A stretch of DNA of 64,000 nt from NCBI GenBank assembly GCA_964035545.1, contig OZ037766.1, positions 32,168,773 through 32,232,772 on the forward strand, written 5' to 3'. The position numbers were made by a program, and so were the translations under genes. The notes under the pieces are model-generated. The model worked only from the letters and a program-made list of their open reading frames with translations. It made no database searches and was not told the origin of the DNA. The stretch comes from Bugula neritina (lineage: Eukaryota; Animalia; Bryozoa). Of this stretch, positions 42,574 to 64,000 are shown in pieces (position 1 is the stretch's first letter; every line of letters begins with the position of its first letter).

Positions 42574-45500
42574 TTACTGTACTGAAATTAGAGTGTTGAC
42601 TCTCTTATACATCTTGAGTGTAAACTCCCCTGTTTCAACACAGTCTGGAACGCAGGCAATCTCAAACAAGCACACGTCTTCCATCTGGTCTATGATTCCC
42701 ACTTTGCAAGCAGCATATACGCTTTCCGGAAAATTAGTAGCAAACTGACTCAGTGGTCCAAATGGGTTATCTTTCAAGTCCAATAAGACGTGGACATAAG
42801 TTTGTTCAAAGGCGGCGAGATCCTTCTCTGAAAGTACTTTTGACCACATCAGAACTTTAGGGACTCCAGAGCTGTAAGCGTCTATGAGGGTCACACACTT
42901 TGGTTTAAATGCACTTTTTGGATTCTTAAGATGGTAAATCTTCTTTAGCCAACATTTAGCTGATTGCAGCGGGAAGTTCAGATCACTATCAAGTACCTCG
43001 CTGCAATATTCTACATATCTATCCCTGAAGAAGGCAGCATCCGCTTGTAGCCTTTTTACCGTTTCTACAAGATCACTCTGAGCACAATCAACACGCTTTA
43101 TTGGAATCTTAGAATCCTCCTCGTGGTAGCCGTCATACATAGTAGCTGTGAGCGTAAGACGTGGCTTGCTGGTTTCTTGACTACTTTGCTCAGATTCTGT
43201 AATGGCAATCAATGGAAGTGTGATGGCAGCTAGACGCACTCTCCAAAGACGGGTGTAAGCCCTCAGCACTTCTTCTACAGAAAACCACAGGAACCGGTCG
43301 AGCAAATCTAACCAGTGTTGCTTCTTCTTTTCTGTATCCTCTAGCAAAACCAATTCATTAAGAATAAAGAAGTAAAGGTTGGCTGACAATACTACAATTT
43401 GTATAGCAATTATCGGATGGTTCTCGTCTGTATTACAACACATAAAGAATGCAAAGGCATTGCATTTTTTCCTCAGCTGATCCAGTTTTTCTTTTTTTGA
43501 AAGAGTGTTGTAAATAGCAAGAAAAGAAATAAAGTCATTTATCATCGTGCATGATTTATCCAATGGTCCTCCAGTCATAAGTGAGCCATACATTTCACCC
43601 AATACAAATCTCAGCTCATCATTAACATTAAAGTACAGATTTTTAAACAACAAACAGCATTGGTGAAGGTCGATTGGTGACTCTTGGTCAAGAAGGTTCG
43701 CAAGTTTGCCAATTAGAATGCCAAGGCTTTCTGTAGAGAATGCAAGTCTTGTTGCTACAGACTCAGTCTCCACAGTGACAGCATTATCAGAGATGGTCTT
43801 TATTAGCTCATCTACAGACATGGCTGCCACATTGTCAGGGTGGGTAGCTTCGGAGCTGGTAGCTTTGTTCTATAAAATATTATTTCTACAAATTGAAAAG
43901 CTAAAAAAAGATAATGTACTCACTGGTATAAAAATAGCAGCATATACAGAGACAATCCATTTGTTTAATTACCATAATATTTAGTAAAACTTTTAACAAA
44001 AGCTATTAATACTATTCAAATTGTAATCCATAAAAACTGTTTCTAAAATTTAGTTTTCATTTTACTATTTGTGCAGTATCTAAGATGTCATATGATAGTC
44101 AATTTGAAAGAGTTGTTATTAACACATCACACAGTTTTCATGCTTTAAGTAAAAGGCTGCAGCTGGTTAAATCAAGCTACCAATAAAACTGTTTCTTACC
44201 TGAGAATTTTGTTCAGCCTGCATCTCTTGTCTCATCAGCTCATCAAACCCTTCCATTACTTTTTTTGAAAATGCCAATAAAGTAGACATATCCTGGTGAT
44301 CAGTTGTAGAGCTAAAATAGTACTCTGCCCACATCCATCCATCATATACAACGAATGGAAGTGGTGAAAGAGAGCGCATATTTGTACCCGATTCATTACT
44401 AACCGGTTCTTCACTAACCGGTTCTTCACTAACCGGTTCTTCACTAACCGGTTCTTCACTAACCGGTTCTTCACTAACCGGTTCTTCACTAACCGGTTCT
44501 TCACTAACCGGTTCTTTACTAACCGGTTCTTTCCTACACGATTCCTTACTATCCAGTTCTTCAATAGTCTCATGTCTTGCTTCTTCTACGGAGCTAAACT
44601 GTTTAGTAGCAGAGGAAGCTTGCGTAATTGTATCAGTAGGTGAAGGAGAGCTGCAAACTTGCCGACTGGTGGAGAGTTTGTCATGTAACTGGTTACACGG
44701 AGCTGAGGATGTAGCAGAAGAATCTGTAGAGGTAGAATCACCAGAGCTGGGAGGCACTTTGTCTTCAGAGTTTTTATGTGAACTAGCTTGCTCTATAGCC
44801 ACAGTGGGAGCAGGAGAGTTTTCTTGGCGAGGTTGGGTAGCCAGGGGTATGGAAGGATTAGAGGTCTCTGTAGCTTTAACTGGCTGTGTAGTGACTGTAA
44901 GGATTGCACTTGCAAAGCGGTCTGTGAGATTATAAACATTCTCTGCCCACTACAATATAAAGTTAGCTTACTCAGTTCTTAGAATACACGGTGAGTCATA
45001 AGGTGAGTCATAAGGTGAGTCATAAGGTGAGTCATAAGGTGAGTCATAAGGTGAGTCATAAGGTGAGTCATAAGGTGAGTCATAAGGTGAGTCATAAGGT
45101 GAGTCATACGTCAGAAAGAGATAGAACATATTTACCTAATTCTATTTAGGAACAGTAATGGAAAAGTTGAGATAGCCTATGTTCTTTAATTATATTATCA
45201 AATTTTTGTTTGGGGCATGAGAAAATAACTTCTTATGCTACATTACAGTTACTAACCTAGAACACAGGCTTTTCTGAATTTCTCCATTAGTATTATTAAA
45301 CTTACCTCCCTATTTCTTCAGTGGAGTTAAATGAGAGTACGTGTATTATTTACAAAAAATTCTAGTAGTAGTAGTAGTTTACAGTGGTAAATAATATTAT
45401 GATAATTGAAAAGACAATATTATGAATATAAAACATGAATATTTTATCAACATAAAAATTGCTGGTTACCTATGCATAATATACTATTACTATTAGTATT

Positions 45501-47351: not shown

Positions 47352-50300
47352 TCAACTGGAGGCTTCAACTTCTGGGAAACAAGCAATTTCAATCAGTGGT
47401 AATACCTGAGTACTATCAGGCTTGGTATGAGTTGCACTGAGAACATAACTATACTGGTCATCACTGAGGTTTGAGAGAAAACATTTCACTCCATCTGAAG
47501 GTCCTACTTTAGAGTCAAAACTAATGAGAGGAACAGGTTGTGAAGAACCTAAAGTTTGTTTCTGTCTGGAAGTTTTTGTTGAATCAACTTTAAAAGATTC
47601 TATTTCATGACCACCTGAGTATACGGATATCTGATGCTCTAGTGAAACCGTGTCTTGAAAAGATACAGGATTTACTAGCAGGCTCATCCAGCATACGCAA
47701 GATTCTAGAGGTTTATACAAAACATGGTTGAGCTCGGTGCACTTCATCTCAAGATATTGCTCTCTGAGTAACTGAGCTTGTGGTTGCATCTCCTTCAGAA
47801 CATCATCTAAGTTCATTTCTTCACACATGCGTGAACAACCAAGTTTAACATCTGAATGTTCCACATATATGTCAACAAGCTTTGTTTGGAGCTTGTAGCA
47901 TGGAAGTGTTGCACCTTCCAACCCACGGAGCCTAGCTTGCTCCGGCTCTACAAATGTCTTCAAGGTCATTGCTGTGGTGCCGTCAAAGCGCTTTTTCAAA
48001 AGTTTGCTAAACGCAGTCAAAACGTAAGTGATGCACTGGCTTGCGACTTCTCTGATTTTTACCAAAACTGATTGCATTGCTTCCTGATTGCGAGTTTCAA
48101 AGCTGATTAGTGCTAAACTCTGGAGAGTGAGAAAGTAAAGGTGAGCTGTTAGAATAAAAAGCGGTAGAGCAACGTCTGGGAATGACTCATCATCCATAAT
48201 CTTCTGCAGCTGAGCTTCTAGAATGTTTCCTGTAAGCTCCAACTCATTTCTCTCTTGGCACTCACTGTTTTCTACGATGGAGTTCAGAGATGTGTATAAC
48301 TCTATTAGTTTTTCCTCTGGAGCAACAGGGTCATACGTGTAAAACATAATGTCTTTCAGAGGTGTCAAATAGTCGGCAGAGTGGTTTTTGAATAGATTGC
48401 GGAATACATTTATTCCCTGAGAAGGACAGCCTGTAAGTGTGGAAAGCAGCCTGGAGATTATTACATTATACTGCTCATGACTAGAGCGAGCGATAGACTG
48501 AGGAACATACTCCCAGTTGTTTCTTCCCATACTAGCTCTCTGCCTTTGTGCAGCATCATATCTGCTTCTGTTACCCTAAAATATATACATACAGAAAACT
48601 GTAAAATCAAATTGATTAGTGTGACTGAATTAGCTAAAAAAATTTTTTAGTGTTATGTAAAGAAATGAGTACTTTTTGTTTTAAAATTTCTGTAACCGCA
48701 TGAAAGTTTGACACCCTCAGAGCTCAGGGCAGTTTTCAAAATGATATGTACTTCAAATCAAAAGATGTTATTATTTTTATGCTACATAATGCTGCATCTT
48801 GAATTATATAAAATATTATTATATTATATAATAAAGAACAAAGCATCTCAATATTGATGTAAATGCAAGTGTTGATGTACATGTAACTACAATTATTTAA
48901 ATAGAGACAAGCAGCTGTCTGAAAGGCAAGCTTTTTGACCAATCAGTAGCACAGCTAGTAATGCTGAACACATGTTTTGGCAGCATGTCAATAAATAGTA
49001 TTTATAAAAAGATGGTTGTGCACTAAGCTGGTGGTAAACTCTGGAACCTTCTAAGAGAAGATAAAGGAGCTGTATTATTATACTTGTAAAGGAAAATGCT
49101 GAGATACTTTGAATAAAACTGGAATCTCTACAACACACCAGCTGTTACATTCAGCATGCAGAATCAAGTAGAGCACTGTTTACTTACATTTTTGATAGTA
49201 AATGCTGGTCTAATTTGAAATTTTTTCTTGGAAGGATCCCGAGCGTCATAAAACCCAGAAACTCTTTGAAACAGTCGAAGAAGCAGCAGTATATCTCTTT
49301 CTACATGAGTCATTTCAAACTTGTCATCATTCTGTAAAAAGAGAAAAAATATGTTGTTATGTTTGTAATACGTTTCAAATCAAATAAATAAATTATTACA
49401 GATACAATAATATTGCAACGCTGCTACTCAGTTTGATAGATACACGCGCCCTATAACTTCTGAATTACTGACAGATAAAAGCAATTAAAATAAACTTTAA
49501 AATAATATTTTTAAGAAACAGAGAAACTATGAAATATTATTCACTCATTGAAAGCTATGAAAATACTATAAAAATATTTTCAACAAAATTAATTTTTATT
49601 GATATTATTAACAGAATTATTTTAAAAAAATTTAATTGCCATAAATGAATAAATTGCAGATATTGTGAGAATGTGAATGAGTGACAGTAGACACTATTGA
49701 TCATCTGCAGTGTTTATTCTGCTCTATAATTGTTTTATTTACCTAAAATTATAAATTACCATCACACAGCATTGCCATTGCCTTAAAGCACAAACAAGTG
49801 CTGTCTAATTTAATTACAACTTATAAAAAATGTGGATTTTATGATTCTAAATTTGTGCTGCAGAGAGAATGTTTTCAATAGAAATACTTACACTGGTAGT
49901 TTGTGTTGAGGTAGTTGTCTGCTTAGGTGCTGCCTCTGCTGCTGCTTTAGATGATTCTCCAGCTGCTGCCTCAGGTACTGGTTCAAGTGTTGCCTCAGCT
50001 GCAGGCTCAGGTGCTAGCTCAGGTGCTGCCTCAGGTGCTGGCTCAGGTGCTGGCTCAGGTGCTGGCTCAGGTACTGGCTCAGGTGCTGCCCTTATTGATG
50101 GAGTTTCCTCAGGTGCTGGTTCAGGTGCTGTCTGGGGCGCTGGCTCAAGTTTTGCCTTGGATGCATGCCCAGGTGCTCTTTCGGGTACTGCCTGAGGTGC
50201 TGGCTTAGGTGTTGCTTCAGGTGTTGCCTCAGGTGCTACCATTATTGTTGGAGTTGCCTCATCCTCCGGTTCAGGTATTGCTTCAGGTGCTGGCTCAGAT

Positions 50301-53300
50301 GCTGCCTGAGGTGCTGGCGCAATTGTTGCCTCAGGTGCATGCTCAGGTGCTCTTTTATGTGCTGCCTGAGGTGCTGGTTCAGGTGCTGCCTGAGGTGCTG
50401 GATCAGGTGTTGGTTTTTGTTCTGGTCTGCCAAAACCCTTTCCAGGAGATAATTTGTACCCAGACATGTCTGATGATATGGTTGATAACTTAGCTTGTCT
50501 AATTTTCCTGTATTGTGGTGTCCCAAAAGAAACGTTGAATGAGGCTCCAAGCAGAGCTGTGTCAGAGAGAGCCCTAGCAACAGTAGAGTCTTCAGTACCT
50601 GCGAATAATAATTATGAATGTCATTTGTCAAATTAGTATCAATATCTAACCCTACTAAAAGCTAATTATTTTTGATATTACATATAAAAAGAAGACCTAG
50701 TCATCTATAATATAAGTAATCAAGGTAAACCAATAGAATTAATATTATGAGCAAGTTTCAAGAAAAGTTATGGACAATTCTAATACTTCTGTGACTTAAA
50801 CTTTAACCTAAAAACAGCAATTAGAGACCAAAAGTAAACACTTCTAAAAACTTCAAACTAAAATTAAGGAAAAATTAAACTCCACTTACCGGTTGTGCAG
50901 TTGCTAACTTGCTAGTGCTATGTCCAAACTACTAACTAAAATGATTAGAGTGCCCAGCCGTGTTGCACTTAACTGCATATTATGTAATCAGCCCAAACCA
51001 ATAGAATTCTTACCCCAAATTCTTACATAACGAAAGTCAAGAAAGCAGTCATTTGGAACACAAGAGGGTTTTTAAGTGCAGGAAGGAAAATAATTGTTTG
51101 AACATTATAATTTTCACTTGAACTGTGTTTGCTTCATTGCTAAGCTGCTCCTTTACAAAATTTTACTCAAAATAATAAAAAGGTGACCCATCGGCTCACA
51201 AGGTAGGATCTGAATGCTATATCACTGCAGTTACTGCAACATATATTATCTGGTAAAGTATTGATTACAAACTATAGTTAATAGCATTTCTCTAGAGTCT
51301 AAACCTAGTATTTTATATTAAAAAAGTAGCAGATATCTTTTTATATGTTATTGTGAAAACCTAACTAAGTTTAATCAAGTTGAGAGAGCTAATTAGTTTT
51401 TAATTTTCAACTTCATGGAAACCAATTAAAGAGTACCTTAGTTATGTTCCACATATTATTATATACTTATAGTATATTACTATTAGTTTTTCATTTCCTC
51501 CATTACTGCACCTATCTCAATGTATTAGTTCGTATTGATCATGACCTCTCAAACTGTGACGTTTATCAAAAGTTAACCAAGCTATACAATTTGTGATTTA
51601 AAACAATGGAAGAAATGCAAATTTCTTTAACCTCACCTGAAACTTTAGGGGCACCAGAAGCGGTGATAGAATCAGTATTTGGGTTTTCAGTTGCTGCCAT
51701 ATCTTGACCCGCTGAACCCTTTACAACACCGGCTTGCGTTATCTACAACAGTGCTATAGAAATAAAAATAAATATCCAAAAGGTCATGGAGATGACACCC
51801 ACTGACTATTCTGATACCTACTGATTATTCTAAACTCGATATTATTTTGACACATACTGATCAGAGTTCTGATAATAATTCACCTTGGGCTCATCAGTAG
51901 GGTCTGCTGTATCTGCCTCCACCTGCTTGGTTGCTGTATCTCCCTCCACCTGCTCTGTTACTGTTTCTCCTTCCACTTGTTCTGCTCCTGTATCTCCTTC
52001 AATCTGTTCTGTTACTGTATCTGCCTCCACCTGCTTGGTTGCTGTATCTCCCTCCACCTGTTCTGTTACTATATCTCCCTCCACCTGTTCTGTTACTGTT
52101 TCTCCTTCCACTTGTTCTGCTCCTGTATCTCCTTCCACCTGCTTTGCTTCTGTATCTTCTGTTGTTCCGGTGTTCTCTGCTACACCTTCCGAGGTGTTCT
52201 CTCTCATTCGAGCTGCTAGTTTTGTCAAAAGTTGGAGATCCTTAGCTAATTGTAAATCATTATTTCCTATCTCTTCATATATGGGAGAAACATCATCATC
52301 TACAATATAAATACCAACAACTCATCCTCTAATAACACAATCCAACATAACTATTTTCAAAAACTTTGGCAATGAAATTGTGTGCAGCATTTAATCAAAG
52401 CTACACTCACTTTTTATCTAATTTCAACAGGACTTTGAACATCATAGTAAGTATTTTTTAATTGAATGAAATTAAAAGCTTTATTGCTTTCTTTTTATCT
52501 GTTCTCAATTGCAGTGAAATCACACCATATCATGTATCTACACCACACTGGTCTGTTTTCAGATTACATTTTAATCGAAGAAATTAATTACAGTTTATTA
52601 AAATATCTTGTTACAAATATACTATAGCTACCTCAAAGTATTTTGACAACTGAAGTTTGTGGTCACCTGCAAACTACTGCTTATGTAAGGTGATAATTGT
52701 GCAAGCCATCAATAACTTGCAATATGTGATTAAACAAATACGAAGGTGTTCACTAACCTTGTGCAGAAGAATCTCCCCGTGAAGAACTTTGTGCAGATGA
52801 GCTTTCAGCTGAAACATTGTCTTTGCTCGGCTCTTTATCAGACAAATCTGCTGTCGGAGACTTGATTTTAGTAGTTTGTGATGCAAGATTATCATTGCGA
52901 CTACTTTCTTCAATCAACCTAATTTGCTGGTCCAAGATGTCAGTTGATATCTAAGACATTAAAACTATTGAGCTAGACACACTAGTAGTAGACTTAGAAG
53001 TATCTATTTATTGCACAAACAAAGATTAAAGATCTGATATTTTAGCGATAGTTATTAATTCTCTAGAAAAATTTACTTAAAAGTAAATTAAGTTGATCTT
53101 CTTTGATTAAACAGTAACATTAACATGAAATTGAGACACTTTTGGGTAACAAAGAACAATCTAAAATAAAGCTATAAAACCATGTTTTAACACACTGTAG
53201 AGATAAAATATATTTCGATAGGATCAACGGTTTTACCTGAAATCCAAGATTAATCAATTGGGCAGTGGGAGACTCTCTGTTACTGGTCTGTAGTCCGGTA

Positions 53301-56300
53301 GGCTCGGGCAGGCTGAAATTTCTCATAGAAAAGAAATGCTGTGAGATCAAACAATTAGCGTTGTCTGCCAATTCCAGTGTTAGTAAAACATCCCTGACAA
53401 TTTCAGGAACATCTTCTCTATTCTTGACACTTGAAGCATTTCCTGGAAAACTACCAGCTGCAAGTGTATTAACTTCCATCACTTGCTCTGTTCTTGTATC
53501 TCCCTCCAACTGTTTCGTTACTGTACCTCCTTCCACCTGCTTTGTTCCTGTTTCTCCTTCCACCTGCTCTGTTACTGCATCTCCTTCCACCTGTTTCGTT
53601 ACTGTCTCTCTCCCTACCTGTTCTGTTACTGTATCTTCCTCCACCTGATCTGAATCTCCTTTCACCTGCTCTGTTACTGTCTCTCCTTCCACCTGCTCTG
53701 TTACTGCATCTCCTTCAACCTGTTTCGTTACTGTTTCTTCTTCTACCTGCTCTGTTACTGTATCTCCTTCCACTTGCTTTGTTCCTGTTTCTCCTTCCAC
53801 CTGCTCTGTTGCTGCATCTCCTTCCACCTGTTTCGTTACTGTTTCTCCTTCTACCTGCTCTGTTACTGTACCTCCCTGTACATGTTCTGCTACTGTATCT
53901 TCCTCCACCTGATCTGAATCTCCTTTCACCTGCTCTGTTACTGTCTCTCCTTCCACATGTTCTGTCACTGTATCTCCCTCCACCTGTTCTGTTGCTGTTT
54001 CTGTCTCCACATGCTCTGTTACTATTTCTCCCTTCACCTGTTTTGCTACTGCATCTCCCTCCACCTGTTCTGTTACTGTCTCTCCTTCCACCTGCTCTGT
54101 CACTGCATCTCCTTCCACCTGCTCTGTTCCTGTTTCTCCTTCCACCTGCTCTGTTACTGTCTCTCCTTCCACCTGCTCTGTTACTGTCTCTGCCTCAACC
54201 TGCTCTGTTCCTGTTTCTTTTTCCACCTGCTCTGTTACTGTCTCTCCCTCAACCTGCTCTGTTCCTGTTTCTCCTTCCACCTGCTCTGTTACTGTCTCTG
54301 CTTCCACCTGCTCTGTTACTGTCTCTCCCTCAACCTGCTCTGTTCCTGTCTTTCCTTCCACCTGCTCTGTTACTGTACCTCCTTCCACCTGCTCTGTTCC
54401 TGTTTCTCCTTCCACCTGCTCTGTTACTGTCTCCCCTTCCACCTGCTCTGTTACTGTCTCTCCCTCAACCTGCTCTGTTCCTGTTTCTCCTTCCACCTGC
54501 TCTGTTACTGTCTCTCCTTCCACCTGCTCTGTTACTGTCTCTCCCTCCACTTGCCCTGTCACTGTCTCTCCCTCCACCTGCTCCGTCACTGCATCTCCTT
54601 CCACCTGCTCTGTTCCTGTTTCTCCTTCCACCTGCTCTGTTACTGTCTCTCCTTCAACCTGCTCTGTTACTGTCTCTCCCTCAACCTGCTCTGTTACTGT
54701 CTCTCCTTCCACCTGCTCTGTTACTGTCTCTCTTTCCACTTGTTCTGCTCCTGTATCTCCTTCTACCTGCTCTGTTACTGTCTCTCCCTCCACCTGCTCT
54801 GTCACTGCATCTCCCTCCACCTGCTCTGTTACTGTATCTCCTTCCACCTGCTCTGTTCCTGTTTCTCCTTTCACCTGCTCTGTTACTGTCTCTCCTTCCA
54901 CCTGCTCTGTTACTGTCTCTCCCTCAACCTGCTCTGTTCCTGTTTCTCTTTCCACCTGCTCTGTTACTGTCTCTCCTTCCACCTGCTCTGTTACTGCATC
55001 TCCTTCAACCTGTTTCGTTACTGTTTCTTCTTCTACCTGCTCTGTTACTGTACCTCCCTGTACATGTTCTGCTACTGTATCTTCCTCCACCTGATCTGAA
55101 TCTCCTTTCACCTGCTCTGTTACTGTCTCTCCTTCCACATGTTCTGTCACTGTATCTCCCTCCACCTGTTCTGTTGCTGTTTCTGTCTCCACATGCTCTG
55201 TTACTATTTCTCCCTTCACCTGTTTTGCTACTGCATCTCCCTCCACCTGTTCTGTTACTGTCTCTCCTTCCACCTGCTCTGTCACTGCATCTCCTTCCAC
55301 CTGCTCTGTTCCTGTTTCTCCTTCCACCTGCTCTGTTACTGTCTCTCCTTCCACCTGCTCTGTTACTGTCTCTGCCTCAACCTGCTCTGTTCCTGTTTCT
55401 TTTTCCACCTGCTCTGTTACTGTCTCTCCCTCAACCTGCTCTGTTCCTGTTTCTCCTTCCACCTGCTCTGTTACTGTCTCTCCTTCCACCTGCTCTGTTA
55501 CTGTCTCTCCCTCCACTTGCTCTGTCACTGTCTCTCCCTCCACCTGCTCCGTCACTGCATCTCCTTCCACCTGCTCTGTTCCTGTTTCTCCTTCCACCTG
55601 CTCTGTTACTGTCTCTCCTTCAACCTGCTCTGTTACTGTCTCTCCCTCAACCTGCTCTGTTACTGTCTCTCCTTCCACCTGCTCTGTTACTGTCTCTCTT
55701 TCCACTTGTTCTGCTCCTGTATCTCCTTCTACCTGCTCTGTTACTGTCTCTCCCTCCACCTGCTCTGTCACTGCATCTCCCTCCACCTGCTCTGTTACTG
55801 TATCTCCTTCCACCTGCTCTGTTCCTGTTTCTCCTTCCACTTGCTCTGTTACTGTCTCTCCTTCCACCTGCTCTGTTACTGTCTCTCCCTCAACCTGCTC
55901 TGTTCCTGTTTCTCTTTCCACCTGCTCTGTTACTGTCTCTCCTTCCACCTGCTCTGTTACTGTCTCTCCTTCCACCTGCTCTGTTACTGTCTCTCCTTCC
56001 ACCTGCTCTGTTACTGTCTCTCCCTCAACCTGCTCTGTTACTGTCTCTCTTTCTACCTGCTCTGTTACTGTCTCTCCTTCCACCTGCTCTGTTACTGTCT
56101 CTCCCTCCACTTGCTCTGTCACTGTCTCTTCCTCCACCTGCTCCGTCACTGCATCTCCTTCCACCTGCTCTGTTCCTGTTTCTCCTTCCACCTGCTCTGT
56201 TACTGTCTCTCCTTCCACCTGCTCTGTTACTGTATCTCCCTCAACCTGCTCTGTTCCTGTTTCTCCTTCCACCTGCTCTGTTACTGTCTCTCCTTCCACT

Positions 56301-58805
56301 TGTTCTGCTCCTGTATCTCCTTTTACCTGCTCTGTTACTGTCTCTCCCTCCACCTGCTCTGTCACTGTCTCTCCTTCCACCTGCTCTGTTACTGTCTCTC
56401 CCTCAACCTGCTCTGTTCCTGTTTCTCTTTCCACCTGCTCTGTTACTGTCTCTCCTTCCACCTGCTCTGTCACTGTCTCTCCCTCCACCTGCTCTGTCAC
56501 TGTCTCTCCTTCTACCTGCTCTGTTACTGCATCTCCTTCTACCTGCTCTGTTACTGTCTCTCCTTCCACCTGCTCTGTTACTGTCTCTCCTTCCACCTGC
56601 TCTGTTCCTGTTTCTCCTTCCACCTGCTCTGTTACTGTCTCTCCTTCCACCTGCTCTGTTACTGTCTCTCCCTCAACCTGCTCTGTTCCTGTTTCTCTTT
56701 CCACCTGCTCTGTTACTGTCTCTCCTTTCACCTGCTCTGTTACTGTCTCTCCCTCCACCTGCTCTGTCACTGTCTCTCCCTCCACCTGCTCTGTTACTGC
56801 ATCTCCTTCTACCTGCTCTGTTACTGTCTCTCCTTCCACCTGCTCTGTTACTGTCTCTCCCTCAACCTGCTCTGTTCCTGTTTCTCCTTCCACCTGCTCT
56901 GTTACTGTATCTCCTTCCACCTGCTCTGTTACTGTCTCTCCTTCCACCTGCTCTGTCACTGCATCTCCCTCCACCTGCTCTGTTACTGTATCTCCTTTCA
57001 CCTGCTCTGTTACTGTCTCTCCTTCCACCTGCTCTGTTACTGCATCTCCTTCCACCTGTTTCGTTACTGTTTCTCCTTCCACCTGCTCTGTCACTGTCTC
57101 TCCCTCCACCTGCTCTGTTACTGTGCCTCTCTCTACATGTTCTGTTACTGTATCTACCTCCACCTGATCTGTCACTGTATCTCTTTCCACCTGCTCTGTT
57201 CCTGTTTCTCCTTCCACCTGCTCTGTTACTGTTTCTCCTTCTACCTGCTCTGTTACTGCATCTCCTTCCACCTGCTCTGTTACTGTCTCTCCTTCCACAT
57301 GTTCTGTTACTGTATCTATCTCCACCTGATCTGTATCTCCTTCCACCTGCTCTGTTATTGTCTCTCCTTCCATCTGTTCTTTCACTGTATCTCCCTCCAC
57401 ATGCTCTGTTACTGTTTCTCCCTTCACCTGATCTGAATCTCCTTTCACCTGCTCTGTTACTGTCCCTCCTACCTGCTCTGTTGCTGAATGTCCTTCCACC
57501 TGCTCTGTTATGGTTTCTCCCTCCACCTGTTCTGTTACTATATCTCCCTCCATCTGCTCTGTTACTGTATCTCCATCCAGTTGATCTGTATCTCCCTCCA
57601 CCTGTTCTATTACTGTATCTCTCTCCACCTGCTCTGTATCTCTCTCCACCTGCTCTGTATCTCTCTTCACTTGATTTGTTTCTCCCATTAGATTTTCATC
57701 TCCAGCTGATTCGCATATTTCAGTAGTTTCTTTTCTTTTCATCCTATGACCCAGTCTCATCAACATAGAGACATTCTCTGCAAGTTCTTCCTCTTTTACA
57801 GTAGAGCTTTCAGTGGTCTCTCCACCTAAAATACAAACAATTTAACTTTTTAAAATTTCTTTATTATCAATTAATATTAGTTCAAAATGAACATAATTCT
57901 TGATTCTTGCTTGAAGGTTGTTATCTATAAGTCTTTGTTCTGACCTACAATAATCAATTTTACGGATAAATTGTTTCACATATTTGTATCAACTCCTCAC
58001 TCCACTACCTTAGCTCAACAGACCAACACACCTTCTCACAACTCTGCTGCTGGACAGTTTCTTGCAACAAACATAAATACCTTTGTTATATGCAAGGTTT
58101 AGACCCATAACATTTATTTATTACTAATGGAATTTAAGCTACACATAATTGTTTCATTATTTTTCCTCAATTAATTAATAATGAGATTAACAGAATAACT
58201 AACATAGTCTCTCAGAGTAGAAATCTATATAAGGGTCAATTATAAATTATTGTAATGGACTAACTGCCTTTTTTCACAGCGTTTTGAAATATGGGACTAA
58301 AAGGCAGTTTCAATAGCTTCCAGCAAATTGTTTTACAGAGCTAGCAGTTGCAGAAATTTACTGTGAAGCACACGAAAATGGTTAAAAGTTTAAGTTACTA
58401 ATATCTACATTTTGTATCAAAGTAAACATATATGGAAATAGTAATTTAAATTAATGCATGGCTTGTGAAAGTTTTAGTCCTTCTAGTCGTCTTTAAATCC
58501 TATGACTGCCAAAACATACGCTCGTCTTGGTTGCTTGGTATCAATGTTTTCTTTTGCAATTCACCACCTCGTTTGCAAATCGCAATGACTGGTTACAGCA
58601 ATTATATACCAGGCAACAACAGTTACATGAAAAAGTCATATATTAAAACTAGCTTGACCAATCACTACGAAACATTAACGATTAAAGTAAACTGAAAAAC
58701 TAAACCTGAACTTAGAGCCATCCCTGTGCGTTCAATGGTTTCAGGAGTTATCACCGCTTCCGTTTCCTGACTTTCAGTCCTAGCATCGCCTGCATCTTTT
58801 GGTAA
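47352..58805 (-). CDS. >=2,490-aa protein: giant acidic EQVEGETVT repeat stalk, PEPA repeats and a C-terminal Cry domain I-like helical domain (paralogue B); 5' end not resolved
   Basis: Phase-consistent exons 58706-58805, 53237-57825, 52758-52950, 51884-52299, 51637-51742, 49892-50598, 49188-49331 and 47352-48575. The first exon found opens with an acceptor, so the start probably lies further right, possibly beyond the retrotransposon. Confidence 0.75.
49930..50410 (-). repeat. Coding 12/24-bp Pro-Ala-Glu repeats (PEPAPQAA / APEP)
   Basis: In frame within exon 49892-50598. Confidence 0.85.
51905..52160 (-). repeat. Second, short block of the 27-bp EQVEG(D/E)TVT coding repeat
   Basis: About 9 units in exon 51884-52299. 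Confidence 0.9.
53490..57670 (-). repeat. Coding 27-bp repeat (TEQVEGETV), ~150 units, with higher-order duplication
   Basis: One uninterrupted reading frame. The variant block (...AKQVKGEIVTEHVETETATEQ...DSDQVEEDTVAEHVQGG...) occurs twice, 1182 bp apart. Confidence 0.95.
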
Positions 58806-58848: not shown

Positions 58849-58935
58849 AGTTTACCCAGTGGGCCTTTGTAGCGTAATTGGTCAGCGCGCCTGCTTGCAA
58901 GCCGGAGGTCTGTGGTTCGAATCCCGGTAGAGGTA
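58849..58935 (+). mobile_element. tRNA-derived repeat (SINE head or pseudo-tRNA), copy 1
   Basis: A-box TAGCGTAATTGG and B-box GGTTCGAATCCC; T-stem mismatched and 6-nt anticodon loop; leader agtttacccagtgg. Confidence 0.65.
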
Positions 58936-59072: not shown

Positions 59073-59157
59073 AGTTTACCCAGTGGCTCCCGTGGTGTAA
59101 TGGTTAGCATACTTGCTTGAATGCTGGAGGTCTCGGGTTCAATTCCCAGTGGAGGCA
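59073..59157 (+). mobile_element. tRNA-derived repeat (SINE head or pseudo-tRNA), copy 2
   Basis: A-box TGGTGTAATGG and B-box GGTTCAATTCCC; same leader agtttacccagtgg; 6-nt anticodon loop and stem mismatches. Confidence 0.65.
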
Positions 59158-59339: not shown

Positions 59340-59688
59340 TGTGATAAACTTGTGGGTTGAATGTAACTTAGTGCAGAACAAGATAGGTTGAAGTAGTAGA
59401 GTTCCAAATGTTTATTATAGTATAAAAATAATGTCAACTTGTCTAGGCGAGCTCCAGTAGTAGACTGGCTTAACACCGTAACTCGCCTGCTTTTATATAC
59501 AGCGAACAAAAGAACATAAAACAAAGAATCTTTTGTGTGTGTGGCCCGAAGTTCGGTAGCTCCGAAATTCGGCAGGCCCGAAGATCGGGGGAACCGATCT
59601 TCGGTCAAGCCGAAACTCGGAACTCCGAATTTCGGACCCCAATTAACATTATTGAACAAAAGAACAAACCAAGGCATAATCTATCACA
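59340..59688 (-). mobile_element. 3' LTR (349 bp) of the Gypsy element
   Basis: TGTGATA...TATCACA terminal inverted repeats; purine-rich PPT (ATAGGGGGTG on -) at 59691-59700 just upstream; TATATAAAA on - at ~59491-59499; AATAAA on - at ~59411-59416. Confidence 0.85.
59546..59635. promoter_or_regulatory. Array of six 11-bp CCGA-N3-TCGG palindromes in LTR U3
   Basis: Copies start at 59546, 59562, 59578, 59594, 59610 and 59625 (16-bp period), ~45 bp upstream of the LTR TATA box. Confidence 0.8.
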
Positions 59689-59897
59689 CACACCCCCTAT
59701 CGGAAAGCATGCTTTCCGATACGAGGGCGAATAATAACATAATAACAATGAGACAGACAATAAACAAAACAAAAAAAAGAAACAGAAGAGAGAGAACAAA
59801 GAAACAAAACAAAACAAAACACCAAGTACATAGTATAAGGGACAACGAATATGTATAACAGAGAATTGTCATGCCACCAGTCAGGGAGAGGCGGGTC

Positions 59898-62800
59898 TCA
59901 CTCCCTCCATGTCCCATCGTCGTTGTCGGTCTGACGTCGTTCCAGCCGGATCAGTCGTCGTCGCAATTGTGTCAGATCTTCCTCACACCGTGCCACGCGG
60001 CGCCGTAAGTGGCGCACCTCCTCTTCTAGTTGCGGTCGGGAGCGGAGTGTGTTGCGCTCCGGGTGTTGTCTGTGCTCTGGGTGGTGTCTGCTTGCCGCCG
60101 AGGAGCGGGGGTCCAGGTCCGATGTACCGGGTCTGGCACCATCCCCGACCCTTGTCAGCATGACCCGAAGAGGCTGGGTGGCTGCTGGTTGGAGGGCGGC
60201 GGCGGGTTCTCCGTCTTCTTCTTGAATTGCTCTGCACGCCGGAAACCCTTGGCCGAGGGTGGCACGCTTGTGGGGGTCCGCGACGTGCGGCAGGATGAGG
60301 TCCCGGAACTCCGGAAATGTGGCCTGATCCACGGTGAACACGTGACCTGGGTGGCAGCGCGAGATGCGCTGGTGGCGCAGCACATAATCCCGCTGGTAGG
60401 AGTATTCGCCGCAAGGGCAGAATACGTTGATGAAATGTTGTGGGGCGTGAACACGCAACCGCCGGGAGGAGGAGAATTTCCTCCGACATTGCCGGCAGAT
60501 GCGGTTGCCCGCTGCCCCGCATGCTTCACTAATCTTCTGATTAGTGTCGCGAGAGACCCAGGACTGGCGGGCGACCAGTGCCTGGGGTAGAGCCAAGGTG
60601 GGGGTGTCACCGTCTTCAGCTCGAGTAGAGGAGGGCACACCGCATAGTATTCCCTGTTCCTCCCCGGCGGCTAATTGTAGCTCAACTGGGTTGGCGACAG
60701 GGTCACTATTCATGGTGGATAGCACCTCAGTCCGGTCTGTGGCGACCCGCGGGCTGCAAGGAGCCGTCACGGGGGCTGGTGGAGGGGGGGAGTCGACTCG
60801 ACTGACCTCCACCTCATCACACTCCATTGCAGTGTCTACAATAGACAGCAGAGGCCGAGTAAGGCCGGTCTCGCCGTCGCCGAAATTCGGCATCGCCTTA
60901 TAGGGTACTTTGTGGGTGGTAGGGAGCCGAGGTGAGTCATGGAGAGTGACTGACCCTATGTCCTGGTCTAATAAAAACTCATTTAGAGAGTCTTCTCCAA
61001 AACTCACATCGACTTCCTCCGTTAATAAATTAGATTCTAACAAATCTAAACTAGCCCAATTAATTACAGTTGAGTCAGACTCCGGTACGGGAGGCTCTGA
61101 CTCTAATGAAATACCTGTGTTTGTAGTGTTGTTACCGGGAAGAGTAATACCCATATCCAATTCGTGATTAATTCGATTACAAGTTTCAGCTTTAAAATTG
61201 CGTGTTACTAGTGGGTTAGTAGTAGTGCAAATGGCCGAGCCTCGTGTTTCAATATTTTTACCTGCTACGCGATCGTGGGGAATTCCCATCGAGTTTTGAA
61301 GGGACAACTCAGACAATCGCGTGCCCTCCGAATTTCGGTTTGCAACTGTTCCTTTTTGTAGTGATTCTCCAGGAGGTTGGAAGAATTTACTAACTAAGGA
61401 GGAGTAATGGCCCTGGACAGATGGATTCCCACTTGGGGGGGGCAACCCTAGGTGTCCTATGTGATAGTCTGCCAGATATCTGGGTGGTTTCCTCGCTCGC
61501 TGGCTCCTTTCCAGCGGTGTGGGTGCTGGTGGTGCCAGTTGCTCCTCAGTTGCCACCGTAGGGGGGTCCCCGCCTTCACCCGTAATACGGGTGGGGGTGT
61601 CCTCCCCCCAGAGGGGTGGTGGCTCTGGGGCGTGTTGCTGCTGCTGCTCCTGCCTCTGTTGTTGTTCCAACTGTTCTCGTAGGGCAGCCTGCTCCTGCTC
61701 TGCCTCCCTTCGGATGACAATTTCCACCTCCCGGGGCCGGGTGGCTCTCCCCCGCTGGTTAGGCTGGCGGTTGGGCTCCAGGAGGGGTGGAGCCTGACCC
61801 ACCGCGTCTGGGCTGGCATGGTATGGTTTCAGGCGCTGTTCGCTCTGGACTGAGACCTGTCCAGAGCGCTCCACACGGTATGTGTGGTTGGCCAGCACCT
61901 CCACCACGCAGTAGGGACCCACGAACTTGGGCTGAAGTTTAGCCGACTGTCCGCGTCGCCTACGATAGCTCACCATCCAGACCCAGTCTCCCACCTGATA
62001 CAATGGGGGCTCTTCTGAGTCCTCTGTGCGGATCTGCCACTGCTGGGCCCGCAGTGCATCATGGGCTTTACCCATGATCTCTGTCAGTCTTTCGACGTAC
62101 TCATGTACCGGCGATTCGGGGGCGGGAACGTGGTATGTCAGGTGTTCCGGAACCCGCGTTTCCCGGCCTAGCATCAGGAAGTTTGGGGTCTCCTGTGTGG
62201 TGGAGTGTGGTGTGCTGCGGTAAGCCCGCATGATTTGTGGCAGCACCACGTCCCATTCTTCCTGACCTCGACCAAGGAGCAGGCTCCTGAGGGCGTCACC
62301 CAACATCCTGTTGTTCCGCTCGACGACTCCGTTCCCTTGTGGGTGATATGGGGTGGTCCGACTCTGGTTCACCCCCCATATCCGGCAGAGGTCTCCCATG
62401 AGCTGGGACTGGAACTGGGCGCCCTGGTCCGTATGTATCTGCTCGGGCAAACCGAGGTAACAGAACACATGTTGGTCCAGGGTCCGGGCCACCGTGGGGG
62501 CAGTTGCGTCTGGGATAGCCAGAGCATCCGCCCACCGGGTAAAGTGGTCCGTGAGCACCAGTATCCAGGTGTTCCCTCTGGCGGATAACGGCATAGGCCC
62601 GACAAGGTCTACCGCCACTACTTGCCACGGTCGACCAGCGTACAGCCGGCGTCGACCAGTGGTTTCCGTGGGGCGGCCATGCTTGCTAGCTTGGCAGACC
62701 TCGCATTGCCGTACCCGCAGTCGTACGTCCCGAGTCATTCCGGGCCAATACCAACGCAGCCGCAGACACCTGATGACCCGACTGACTCCAGAATGAGCCT

Positions 62801-64000
62801 GCTTATGGGTGTCCCAGATCAGTTCCCGTCGGAGGGCGCGTGGACAGACGACGCGGTCCCTCTCCTGCTGACGGTTGTCTGCTGCTAACGTTATCATCAG
62901 GAGGCCATCAGGACTGACCTTGAGGGCATCCCAGCGACGACAGAGGAGTTGGAACTCAACGTCTCCCTGCCGCTGCTGTTCCTCGCTAGGTCGTCGGCCC
63001 TCCTTCTTGGCCCGGAAAATGTCCGCTACCGGGCCGGGTAGCGTCTCCTGGAGTCGGCACAGCTCCTTGACATTCTGGTACAGAGTGGGGTTGGCGTGAA
63101 GCGCCTGGACGTCGTCTGAGTGGGTTTCGGTCCGAAGATGGCCGTGCTCCCACCGATAGACGGCGCCCTCCCCTAACTCTGTTTCCACGTCAAGGCGAGC
63201 GGGTCCCCCGTCCCGTTTTTCAATGTGCAGGCATTGCTTACAGTCCTCTACCGGCCGGCGGCTCATGCCGTCGGCGTTTCCGTGCTTCCGGCCAGCACGG
63301 TGTTCTATCCGGTAAGAGAACTCGGCAAGAATCTCTAGCCAACGAGCTACCTGGCTCGAGGGCTCCGCACGTTTACACAGCCATATCAGTGATGCATGGT
63401 CTGTTCGCAAACGGAACGTTCTCCCATACAGATATGGCCGAAAGTGCTTGACCGCCTTGACTACTGCTAGGAGTTCCTTCCTAGTGGTGCAGTAGTTCTT
63501 CTCGGCGGCCGCGAGAGTCTTGCTGTAGTAAGCCACGACCACCTCACTTCCACCCTGGACTTGAGACAGGACAGCTCCCACGCTGTGGTCACTGGCGTCG
63601 GTGTCCAGGATGTACTCCTTGGCTGGATCAGGATACGCCAGAATTGGCGCCTCCATTAGCCGTTGCTTGAGGTGGTCGAATGCCTGCTGCTCCTCCTGCG
63701 TCCACTGCCACCGGACCCCTTTTGCGGTCAGCCGATTTAACGGCTGAGCCACTCCTGCGAAGCCAGGTATGTACTGCCGGTAGTACCCTACTAGGCCCAA
63801 GAATGCGCGCAACTCAGGGAGGTCACGGGGGACAGTCCACTGCTTCACAGCCTGTACCTTCTCTGGGTCGGTAGCGACCCCATCACGGCCCACCACATGG
63901 CCCAGGTACGTGACTTCCGGCTGCAAGAGTGCACACTTGGAGGGCTTCAGCTTGAGTCCAGCTGCCCGGAGGCGGTCAAAGACCTCCCGCAGACGACTGA
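59898..64000 (-). CDS. pol: Gypsy Pol polyprotein (RT end, RNase H, integrase) with a ~520-aa C-terminal extension (acidic region, two C2H2-type zinc fingers, coiled coil)
   Basis: Frame open to the window edge (SRLREVFDRLRAAGLKLKPSKC...YLGHVV). RNase H LDTDASD, KELLAV, LRTDH, NADGMSR; IN HHCC (H..AH...CEVC); DDE (VDLVGP, TDQGAQF, VERNNR); GPY motif; RSQRARKPPRYLADY; then CRQC...H...H, CPC...H...C and LEEEVRHLRRRVARCEEDLTQLRRRL. Confidence 0.93.
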   Translation of the reverse strand, partial: SRLREVFDRLRAAGLKLKPSKCALLQPEVTYLGHVVGRDGVATDPEKVQAVKQWTVPRDLPELRAFLGLVGYYRQYIPGFAGVAQPLNRLTAKGVRWQWTQEEQQAFDHLKQRLMEAPILAYPDPAKEYILDTDASDHSVGAVLSQVQGGSEVVVAYYSKTLAAAEKNYCTTRKELLAVVKAVKHFRPYLYGRTFRLRTDHASLIWLCKRAEPSSQVARWLEILAEFSYRIEHRAGRKHGNADGMSRRPVEDCKQCLHIEKRDGGPARLDVETELGEGAVYRWEHGHLRTETHSDDVQALHANPTLYQNVKELCRLQETLPGPVADIFRAKKEGRRPSEEQQRQGDVEFQLLCRRWDALKVSPDGLLMITLAADNRQQERDRVVCPRALRRELIWDTHKQAHSGVSRVIRCLRLRWYWPGMTRDVRLRVRQCEVCQASKHGRPTETTGRRRLYAGRPWQVVAVDLVGPMPLSARGNTWILVLTDHFTRWADALAIPDATAPTVARTLDQHVFCYLGLPEQIHTDQGAQFQSQLMGDLCRIWGVNQSRTTPYHPQGNGVVERNNRMLGDALRSLLLGRGQEEWDVVLPQIMRAYRSTPHSTTQETPNFLMLGRETRVPEHLTYHVPAPESPVHEYVERLTEIMGKAHDALRAQQWQIRTEDSEEPPLYQVGDWVWMVSYRRRRGQSAKLQPKFVGPYCVVEVLANHTYRVERSGQVSVQSEQRLKPYHASPDAVGQAPPLLEPNRQPNQRGRATRPREVEIVIRREAEQEQAALREQLEQQQRQEQQQQHAPEPPPLWGEDTPTRITGEGGDPPTVATEEQLAPPAPTPLERSQRARKPPRYLADYHIGHLGLPPPSGNPSVQGHYSSLVSKFFQPPGESLQKGTVANRNSEGTRLSELSLQNSMGIPHDRVAGKNIETRGSAICTTTNPLVTRNFKAETCNRINHELDMGITLPGNNTTNTGISLESEPPVPESDSTVINWASLDLLESNLLTEEVDVSFGEDSLNEFLLDQDIGSVTLHDSPRLPTTHKVPYKAMPNFGDGETGLTRPLLSIVDTAMECDEVEVSRVDSPPPPAPVTAPCSPRVATDRTEVLSTMNSDPVANPVELQLAAGEEQGILCGVPSSTRAEDGDTPTLALPQALVARQSWVSRDTNQKISEACGAAGNRICRQCRRKFSSSRRLRVHAPQHFINVFCPCGEYSYQRDYVLRHQRISRCHPGHVFTVDQATFPEFRDLILPHVADPHKRATLGQGFPACRAIQEEDGEPAAALQPAATQPLRVMLTRVGDGARPGTSDLDPRSSAASRHHPEHRQHPERNTLRSRPQLEEEVRHLRRRVARCEEDLTQLRRRLIRLERRQTDNDDGTWRE

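Follow-up and report, generated by a model that had tools for sequence, protein, structure and literature searches.

Complex retroviruses, and some plant DNA transposons, are characterized by trans-regulators that bind DNA. Foamy virus Tas (Bel-1) is described as binding and activating both the LTR and an internal promoter upstream of its own gene (PMC7390438). VANC of the Arabidopsis VANDAL elements is a sequence-specific protein whose targets are tandem repeats in its own transposon; its binding and its anti-silencing activity are reported as demonstrated (PMC5735166; bioRxiv 10.64898/2026.08.24.746577). Accessory proteins have also been described in Gypsy elements. CERV, encoded by Cer1 of C. 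elegans, is an accessory regulator made from a spliced mRNA and needed for nuclear export of the genomic RNA (PMC10309623). The plant Gypsy elements Retand, with its TRP28 sequences, and Grande carry an extra open reading frame (ORF) between pol and the 3′ LTR; its product is predicted to bind DNA, and tandem arrays often lie nearby (PMC11963269). The initial annotation of the locus studied here knew of no self-encoded regulator of this kind in Metaviridae, a claim of novelty that was too wide in view of CERV and TRP28. For the narrower combination, a Gypsy C2H2 extension paired with an LTR operator, we found no precedent in the literature searched, outside which lie most subscription journals and Repbase reports. 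The finger domain itself is not described in the available text of PMC6338049, PMC8220671, and PMC6431247.

We analyzed a stretch of 64,000 nucleotides (nt) of Bugula neritina DNA, here called the window. It covers the 3′ part of an element whose 5′ LTR and gag fall outside the window. The following features were assigned (a minus sign denotes the reverse strand).

59340..59688 (-): 3′ LTR, 349 bp, with ends TGTGATA...TATCACA
59411..59416 (-): AATAAA, putative polyadenylation signal
59491..59499 (-): TATATAAAA, putative TATA box of the LTR
59546..59635 (no strand): U3 array of six CCGA-N3-TCGG palindromes with spacing 16, 16, 16, 16, 15; as a unit, the array forms an imperfect dyad
59689..59699 (-): probable polypurine tract, a purine-rich run immediately next to the LTR
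59693..59726 (no strand): 3′ untranslated sequence forming a hairpin or long palindrome (z -6.3) that includes TCGG and CCGA half-sites
59898..63998 (-): pol ORF of 1366 codons, open at the window edge; tail of reverse transcriptase (RT), RNase H, integrase, and extension, with no stop between them
59898..60827 (-): probable separate accessory product of about 309 residues, beginning at Met1058
59913..60038 (-): coiled coil at the C-terminus (residues 1321-1362), some six heptads
60231..60560 (-): two-finger domain of an unnamed family (C2H2 plus CxC..H..C, with flanking helices), residues 1147-1256
60819..61121 (-): acidic/hydrophobic segment of the extension, residues 960-1060, 19% D/E, in which the LLDQD and PYK motifs are conserved
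60836..60863 (-): probable 3′ splice site, with branch-like CTTAC, pyrimidine tract, and TAG ending at 60836
60880..60890 (no strand): internal palindrome 1, with 13-bp identity to an LTR copy
60897..60902 (-): TATAAG in the conserved PYK codons, a weak candidate for an internal TATA box
61328..61338 (no strand): internal palindrome 2, with 13-bp identity to the first LTR copy

This arrangement resembles that of foamy virus Tas in having LTR sites together with an internal site ahead of the regulator's own coding region, binding being hypothesized in the present case (PMC7390438). The two targets of Tas are described as little related to each other, whereas the LTR and internal sites found here are near identical (PMC7390438). 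Moreover, Tas has its own ORF behind env, whereas the candidate regulator is in frame with pol, in an element without env and with a pol far closer to Ty3. Like CERV, it would be a Gypsy accessory product with probable splicing and predicted coils; CERV has a cysteine-rich loop (PMC10309623). Compared by description only, CERV differs in acting on RNA export, and its account describes no LTR operator (PMC10309623). The plant TRP28 sequences share the extra coding capacity 3′ of the pol domains, the predicted DNA binding, and the nearby arrays, but their ORFs are antisense and separate, their arrays lie mostly in the spacer between pol and the LTR, and their function is putative; the word zinc is absent from the available text of the TRP28 paper (PMC11963269). 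VANC belongs to a DNA transposon and to another protein family, and its binding and anti-silencing have counterparts here only as hypotheses (PMC5735166).

The sequence belongs to a Ty3/Gypsy LTR retrotransposon, of which the window contains the 3′ half. Pfam recognized the RVT_1 tail, RT_RNaseH_2, Integrase_H2C2, rve, and SH3_Tf2-1 in pol, which is the Gypsy order RT - RNase H - integrase, and the best solved relative was Ty3-G (E 2e-76, vs a much weaker E 2e-14 for the foamy virus RT-RNase H). At the 3′ LTR, TG...CA ends and a preceding polypurine tract were found, as in Ty3/Gypsy elements (Metaviridae). The end at 59340 is backed by four contigs of one sequencing run that pass there into unlike flanks. 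Between the pol stop and the LTR, only about 210 bp apart, no env was found. Having neither env nor a retroviral RT, the element is not a spumaretrovirus or another complex retrovirus. Many diverged relatives were present in public DNA runs. The observed/expected ratio of CpG was 1.08 in the LTR (59340-59688) vs 0.37 in the host flank (window positions 1-53000), in keeping with a host that methylates and an insertion of recent date.

Other features of the window lie outside the element. Two tRNA-like repeats (58863-58935 and 59086-59157, forward strand), in which ARAGORN detects no tRNA, are located just outside the LTR and had very high contig depth in DNA runs; they are probably SINEs, and about 180 bp separate the second one from the insertion site of the element. 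At 53120-57841 (reverse strand), an open frame of 1573 codons consists mostly of a 27-bp tandem repeat (about 156 copies), encoding a very acidic nine-residue repeat, and a shorter array related to it was found at 51907-52157. Two long ORFs at 42574-43869 and 47352-48575 (both reverse strand) are related to each other (27% identity over 281 residues), and neither matched a Pfam family above the cut-off.

Eight CCGA-N3-TCGG palindromes were found in the window, vs 0.03 expected by chance, and all eight lie within the element (starts at 59546, 59562, 59578, 59594, 59610, 59625, 60880, and 61328), with no copy in about 59 kb of host flank. The count and positions of the six copies in U3 were as first annotated, but their period is not strictly 16 bp, the last interval being 15 bp. 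As annotated, the array is upstream of the TATA box: the nearest palindrome ends 46 bp upstream of TATATAAAA (59491-59499), and the array begins 54 bp from the U3 end of the LTR. The distance between CpGs is 5 nt inside one palindrome and 6-7 nt between neighboring palindromes. The copies at 60880-60890 and 61328-61338 are exact, and their identity to LTR copies extends to 13 bp rather than the 11 bp noted before. At least two internal palindromes occurred in 8/3000 dinucleotide shuffles, in 1/3000 with both identical to LTR 11-mers, and in 90/3000 protein-preserving shuffles. By this modest, post hoc test, the internal palindromes are probably not due to chance. The one at 60880 appeared in 10.8% of synonymous shuffles, that is, from the protein alone.

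The array folds as one long hairpin, for which Rfam gave only a sub-threshold, miRNA-like hairpin score. Pattern scans for palindrome arrays yielded 239 loci, none of them similar to the element by blastn or tblastn. The idea that CCGA-N3-TCGG is uniquely prone to form arrays was dropped, since control motifs gave 2 and 45 triplets in viral contigs vs 24 for this motif. Of 119 metagenome loci (set L121-L239), 14 (e.g., L146:2879-3275 and L177:2107-2505) have CCGA-N3-TCGG triplets next to terminal 8-mers that we take, from their motifs, to be hAT-like; two of the 14 also show a partner end at a distance of about 400 bp, together with a flanking duplication matching at 7 of 8 positions.

Beyond the integrase tail (about residue 850), pol is extended by about 500 residues, which comprise a variable stretch, the acidic segment, the finger domain, a linker, and the coiled coil. 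The acidic segment and the heptad coil of the initial annotation were recovered; its zinc fingers proved to be one canonical C2H2 finger (finger 1) and one atypical finger (finger 2, CxC-x12-H-x5-C), and its dimerization through the coiled coil is a prediction. Searches with the finger domain returned 147 matches, and a second search added 13. Across an alignment of 100 sequences, conservation is 86-99% for the zinc ligands and 58-74% for the Arg/Asp residues at the start of both finger helices. The structure model of the domain reached pLDDT 97, and its best sequence matches were tandem C2H2 fingers (E 5e-8). By fold the match was weak: Kaiso (Z 3.9, rmsd 2.8, 57 residues) tied with other DNA-bound finger pairs, fold searches gave nothing at E<=0.001 or at Z>=5, and a 220-residue query returned coiled coils only. 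Pfam names no family for the domain in the window; zf-C2H2_4 was found in 12/100 members at E<=0.01, and the window's domain is not among the 12. In the ESM Atlas, the matches were clusters without a name (0.95) and C2H2 clusters of a generic kind. Of the 59 family members in which at least 80 residues come after the domain, 31 continue into coil-like heptads, vs 0.46 on average in shuffles. At its N-terminus the domain has a conserved helix, which starts near 60560-60590 and which a fragment covering 59898-60500 would cut off.

By sequence comparison, the finger domain is an unnamed family present both in retroelement-linked proteins and in stand-alone genes of bryozoans. Integrase-tail or protease marks precede it in P0153 and P0154 and in the distant matches P0142, P0145, and P0170; in P0153 and P0154, the frame is unbroken from the integrase tail on. 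No long fused proteins were found among candidates of 751-2391 aa and 918-2620 aa, which is weak evidence. P0141/P0170 combine a retroviral-type aspartyl protease, a long spacer, and the finger domain, without a Pfam match for RT or integrase; they possibly represent a deleted, non-autonomous element that retained the finger. The annotations of Watersipora subatra and Bugula neritina include stand-alone genes that encode this domain, and two of them have an N-terminal region in common across Watersipora and Bugula. The host-annotated proteins P0005/P0148, P0082, P0165, and P0166 carry the domain, which in some is repeated in tandem and followed by a coil at the C-terminus. In a tree of 131 domains (quick method, midpoint-rooted, 114 columns), from which the direction of transfer between host and element is not readable, the window's domain falls in a clade of 19 rows (support 98) nested in one of 55 rows (support 98). 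One host-annotated pair is sister to the element clade in this tree (support 93).

The finger-coil protein is probably also made separately, starting at Met1058, as judged from comparison of relatives. This Met (ATG at 60827) is present in 16/20 relatives (12/16 without called starts), and a TAG (60838-60836) sits eight bases upstream of the ATG. Residues 1054-1055 are compatible with YAG in 11/13 relatives, despite an identity of only 4/15 and 1/13 at these two residues. Four of 148 columns score as high as the acceptor column, and these four appear to be conserved protein motifs. In P0006 and P0074, called in the +1 frame, Gln (CAR) stands exactly at the TAG of the window. When the 145 YAG sites are ranked by pyrimidine content, two of the top 15 combine a branch-like motif with the absence of an upstream AG, and the acceptor is one of them. 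A comparable pair was seen in eight proteins of the sister subfamily, the pattern having been defined post hoc. RNA contigs from four studies came from diverged relatives at low depth; they do not cover 60815-60915 or 61320-61420, contain no joint or start at 60836-60870, and speak neither for nor against one. Since both Met and acceptor are conserved, a spliced mRNA for the finger-coil protein of about 309 residues is preferred. An internal promoter is the lesser option, because TATAAG has no initiator-like motif at the expected distance and there are only 36 nt to the acceptor. From these comparisons we would thus rank splicing to 60836 before transcription from TATAAG, and the latter before release from Pol by the protease. 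Upstream of Met1058, about a third of the residues are identical in P0153; such coding constraint suggests that a fused form may be made as well.

Retention of the palindromes in relatives was assessed by reading DNA back through protein sequences; no DNA flanking the relatives was found in viral contigs, metagenome contigs, or prokaryotic genomes. P0022 reads on through the LTR of a relative and indicates at least four palindromes in the same register, with changed linkers that show no visible compensation (translation judged by eye). A diverged LTR, represented by one contig, shares the TATA region with the window, departs from it at 59512, and contains a palindrome some 20 nt farther on. 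Within pol, a palindrome at 60880 requires P-[NKTSRIM]-[FLIV]-G in frame. It is compatible with 9 of the 14 close relatives covering the site, in which N/K and F/I substitutions are confined to the free N3 spacer, and incompatible with five (P0002, P0009, P0080, P0157, and P0163). P0006, called in the +1 frame, has the same five residues there as the window, which fixes both wobble (third-codon) bases. At 61328, P0153 is compatible (4/8 residues identical at the site vs 3/32 just upstream), and P0154 fits only if aligned by eye, which leaves one clear relative. Read back in this way, the sequences show that palindromes were retained in relatives.

The expectation that the internal copies would be conserved in the family was thus borne out in close relatives at 60880, but not throughout. 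The palindrome is absent from P0009, whose finger helices are nearly equal to those of the window, and the sister subfamily (P0025, P0026, P0028, P0038, P0046, P0047, and P0072) has similar finger helices without it. The stretch around 60880 is also conserved as protein (18/29 residues identical in P0153), and protein constraint may explain the conservation of this site.

Two C2H2 fingers read about one half-site, and a zipper or coil can join two such units. On this basis, the two fingers of the candidate protein would take about one half-site, and the coil, on its long linker, would pair two proteins on one palindrome. The finger-coil mRNA would be spliced to the acceptor at 60836 from a donor outside the window. 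The protein would occupy the U3 array and the sites ahead of its own coding region; its effects, at a guess, would be activation or anti-silencing at the LTR and feedback at the internal sites. Such a feedback circuit, in which array binding, dimerization, and the sign of regulation are predicted, is suggested by the presence of palindromes in U3 as well as just upstream of the probable start. The initial annotation had likewise read the locus as encoding its own regulator. In favor of that reading are the tandem C2H2 model, the coil in 31/59 members, the retained palindromes, and the internal copies upstream of the probable start; against it are the absence of the 60880 site from sister lineages with similar helices and the existence of host candidates. 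We lean, tentatively, to the possibility that a finger-coil protein of about 309 residues dimerizes, binds the LTR and internal CCGA-N3-TCGG palindromes, and regulates transcription of the element.

LTR enhancers usually bind host factors, and the palindromes could be read almost as readily as sites of a SAND-domain protein such as DEAF1, or of a host gene of the same finger family, with the extension serving chromatin targeting or RNA handling. This is a serious possibility, though short of probable. Stand-alone host genes with the finger domain exist in both bryozoan species, sister lineages keep the fingers without the 60880 site, and CCGA-N3-TCGG arrays also occur in 119 unrelated metagenome loci without trace of the element. 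Each palindrome copy contains at least one TTCGG half-site, and DEAF1 is described as binding repeated TTCGGG half-sites with unmethylated CpG, so that the likeness extends to TTCG(G) half-sites with CpG (PMC4274154). The arrangement differs from that described for DEAF1, itself a host protein: its sites have 6-11 nt between the CpGs of a repeated motif, whereas the half-sites here stand head to head, with 5 nt between their CpGs (PMC4274154). The host flank is also devoid of copies, and a host factor alone leaves unexplained the copies just before the probable start of the finger protein. Other evidence bears on a finger that stays fused to integrase and, by binding the array as a repeat subterminal to the cDNA end, aids assembly of the integration complex. 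In this element the frame is open from integrase to coil, as it is in P0153 and P0154 beginning with the integrase tail; even in distant matches, the domain comes after integrase-tail or protease marks; the array starts close to the U3 end; and the same motif is arrayed beside the hAT-like termini mentioned above. BED fingers of hAT transposases reportedly bind subterminal repeats. We consider this reading unlikely: copies deep within pol would be pointless for recognizing ends, the conserved acceptor and Met indicate a short product, and the array is at a normal enhancer distance from the TATA box.

Last, the array could be a nucleic-acid structure, either an RNA hairpin at the 3′ end of the genome or a cruciform, or else a neutral inverted duplication, the internal copies being incidental. 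The single long hairpin (z -9.2) is more stable and more dyad-symmetric than rearrangements of the array's own spacers and linkers, of which 29/2000 were as low, and palindrome arrays are common, as the control motifs demonstrated. Nevertheless, the relative represented by P0022 retained half-sites and spacing while its linkers changed without visible compensation, and two internal copies of 13 bp are unlikely by chance, making this the most improbable of the readings considered.

Regulation of the element by its own finger-coil protein thus remains our preferred, tentative reading. If it is correct, the element could, with somewhat greater doubt, belong to an invertebrate Gypsy lineage that has its own spliced zinc-finger/coiled-coil transcription factor, an LTR operator array of CpG palindromes, and operators before its own gene. 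It is possible, and to us just as doubtful, that such a lineage represents a foamy virus-like or VANC-like circuit of independent origin in Metaviridae, with a finger family that is also found in bryozoan host genes. The Gypsy accessory proteins encountered in the literature searched act in RNA export or have a putative function. Because the finger domain is small and the candidate operator is defined exactly, at 11 bp, self-regulation of a retrotransposon becomes directly testable. Even if a host factor binds the array, an unnamed finger family that spans retroelements and bryozoan host genes would represent a case of gene capture or domestication.
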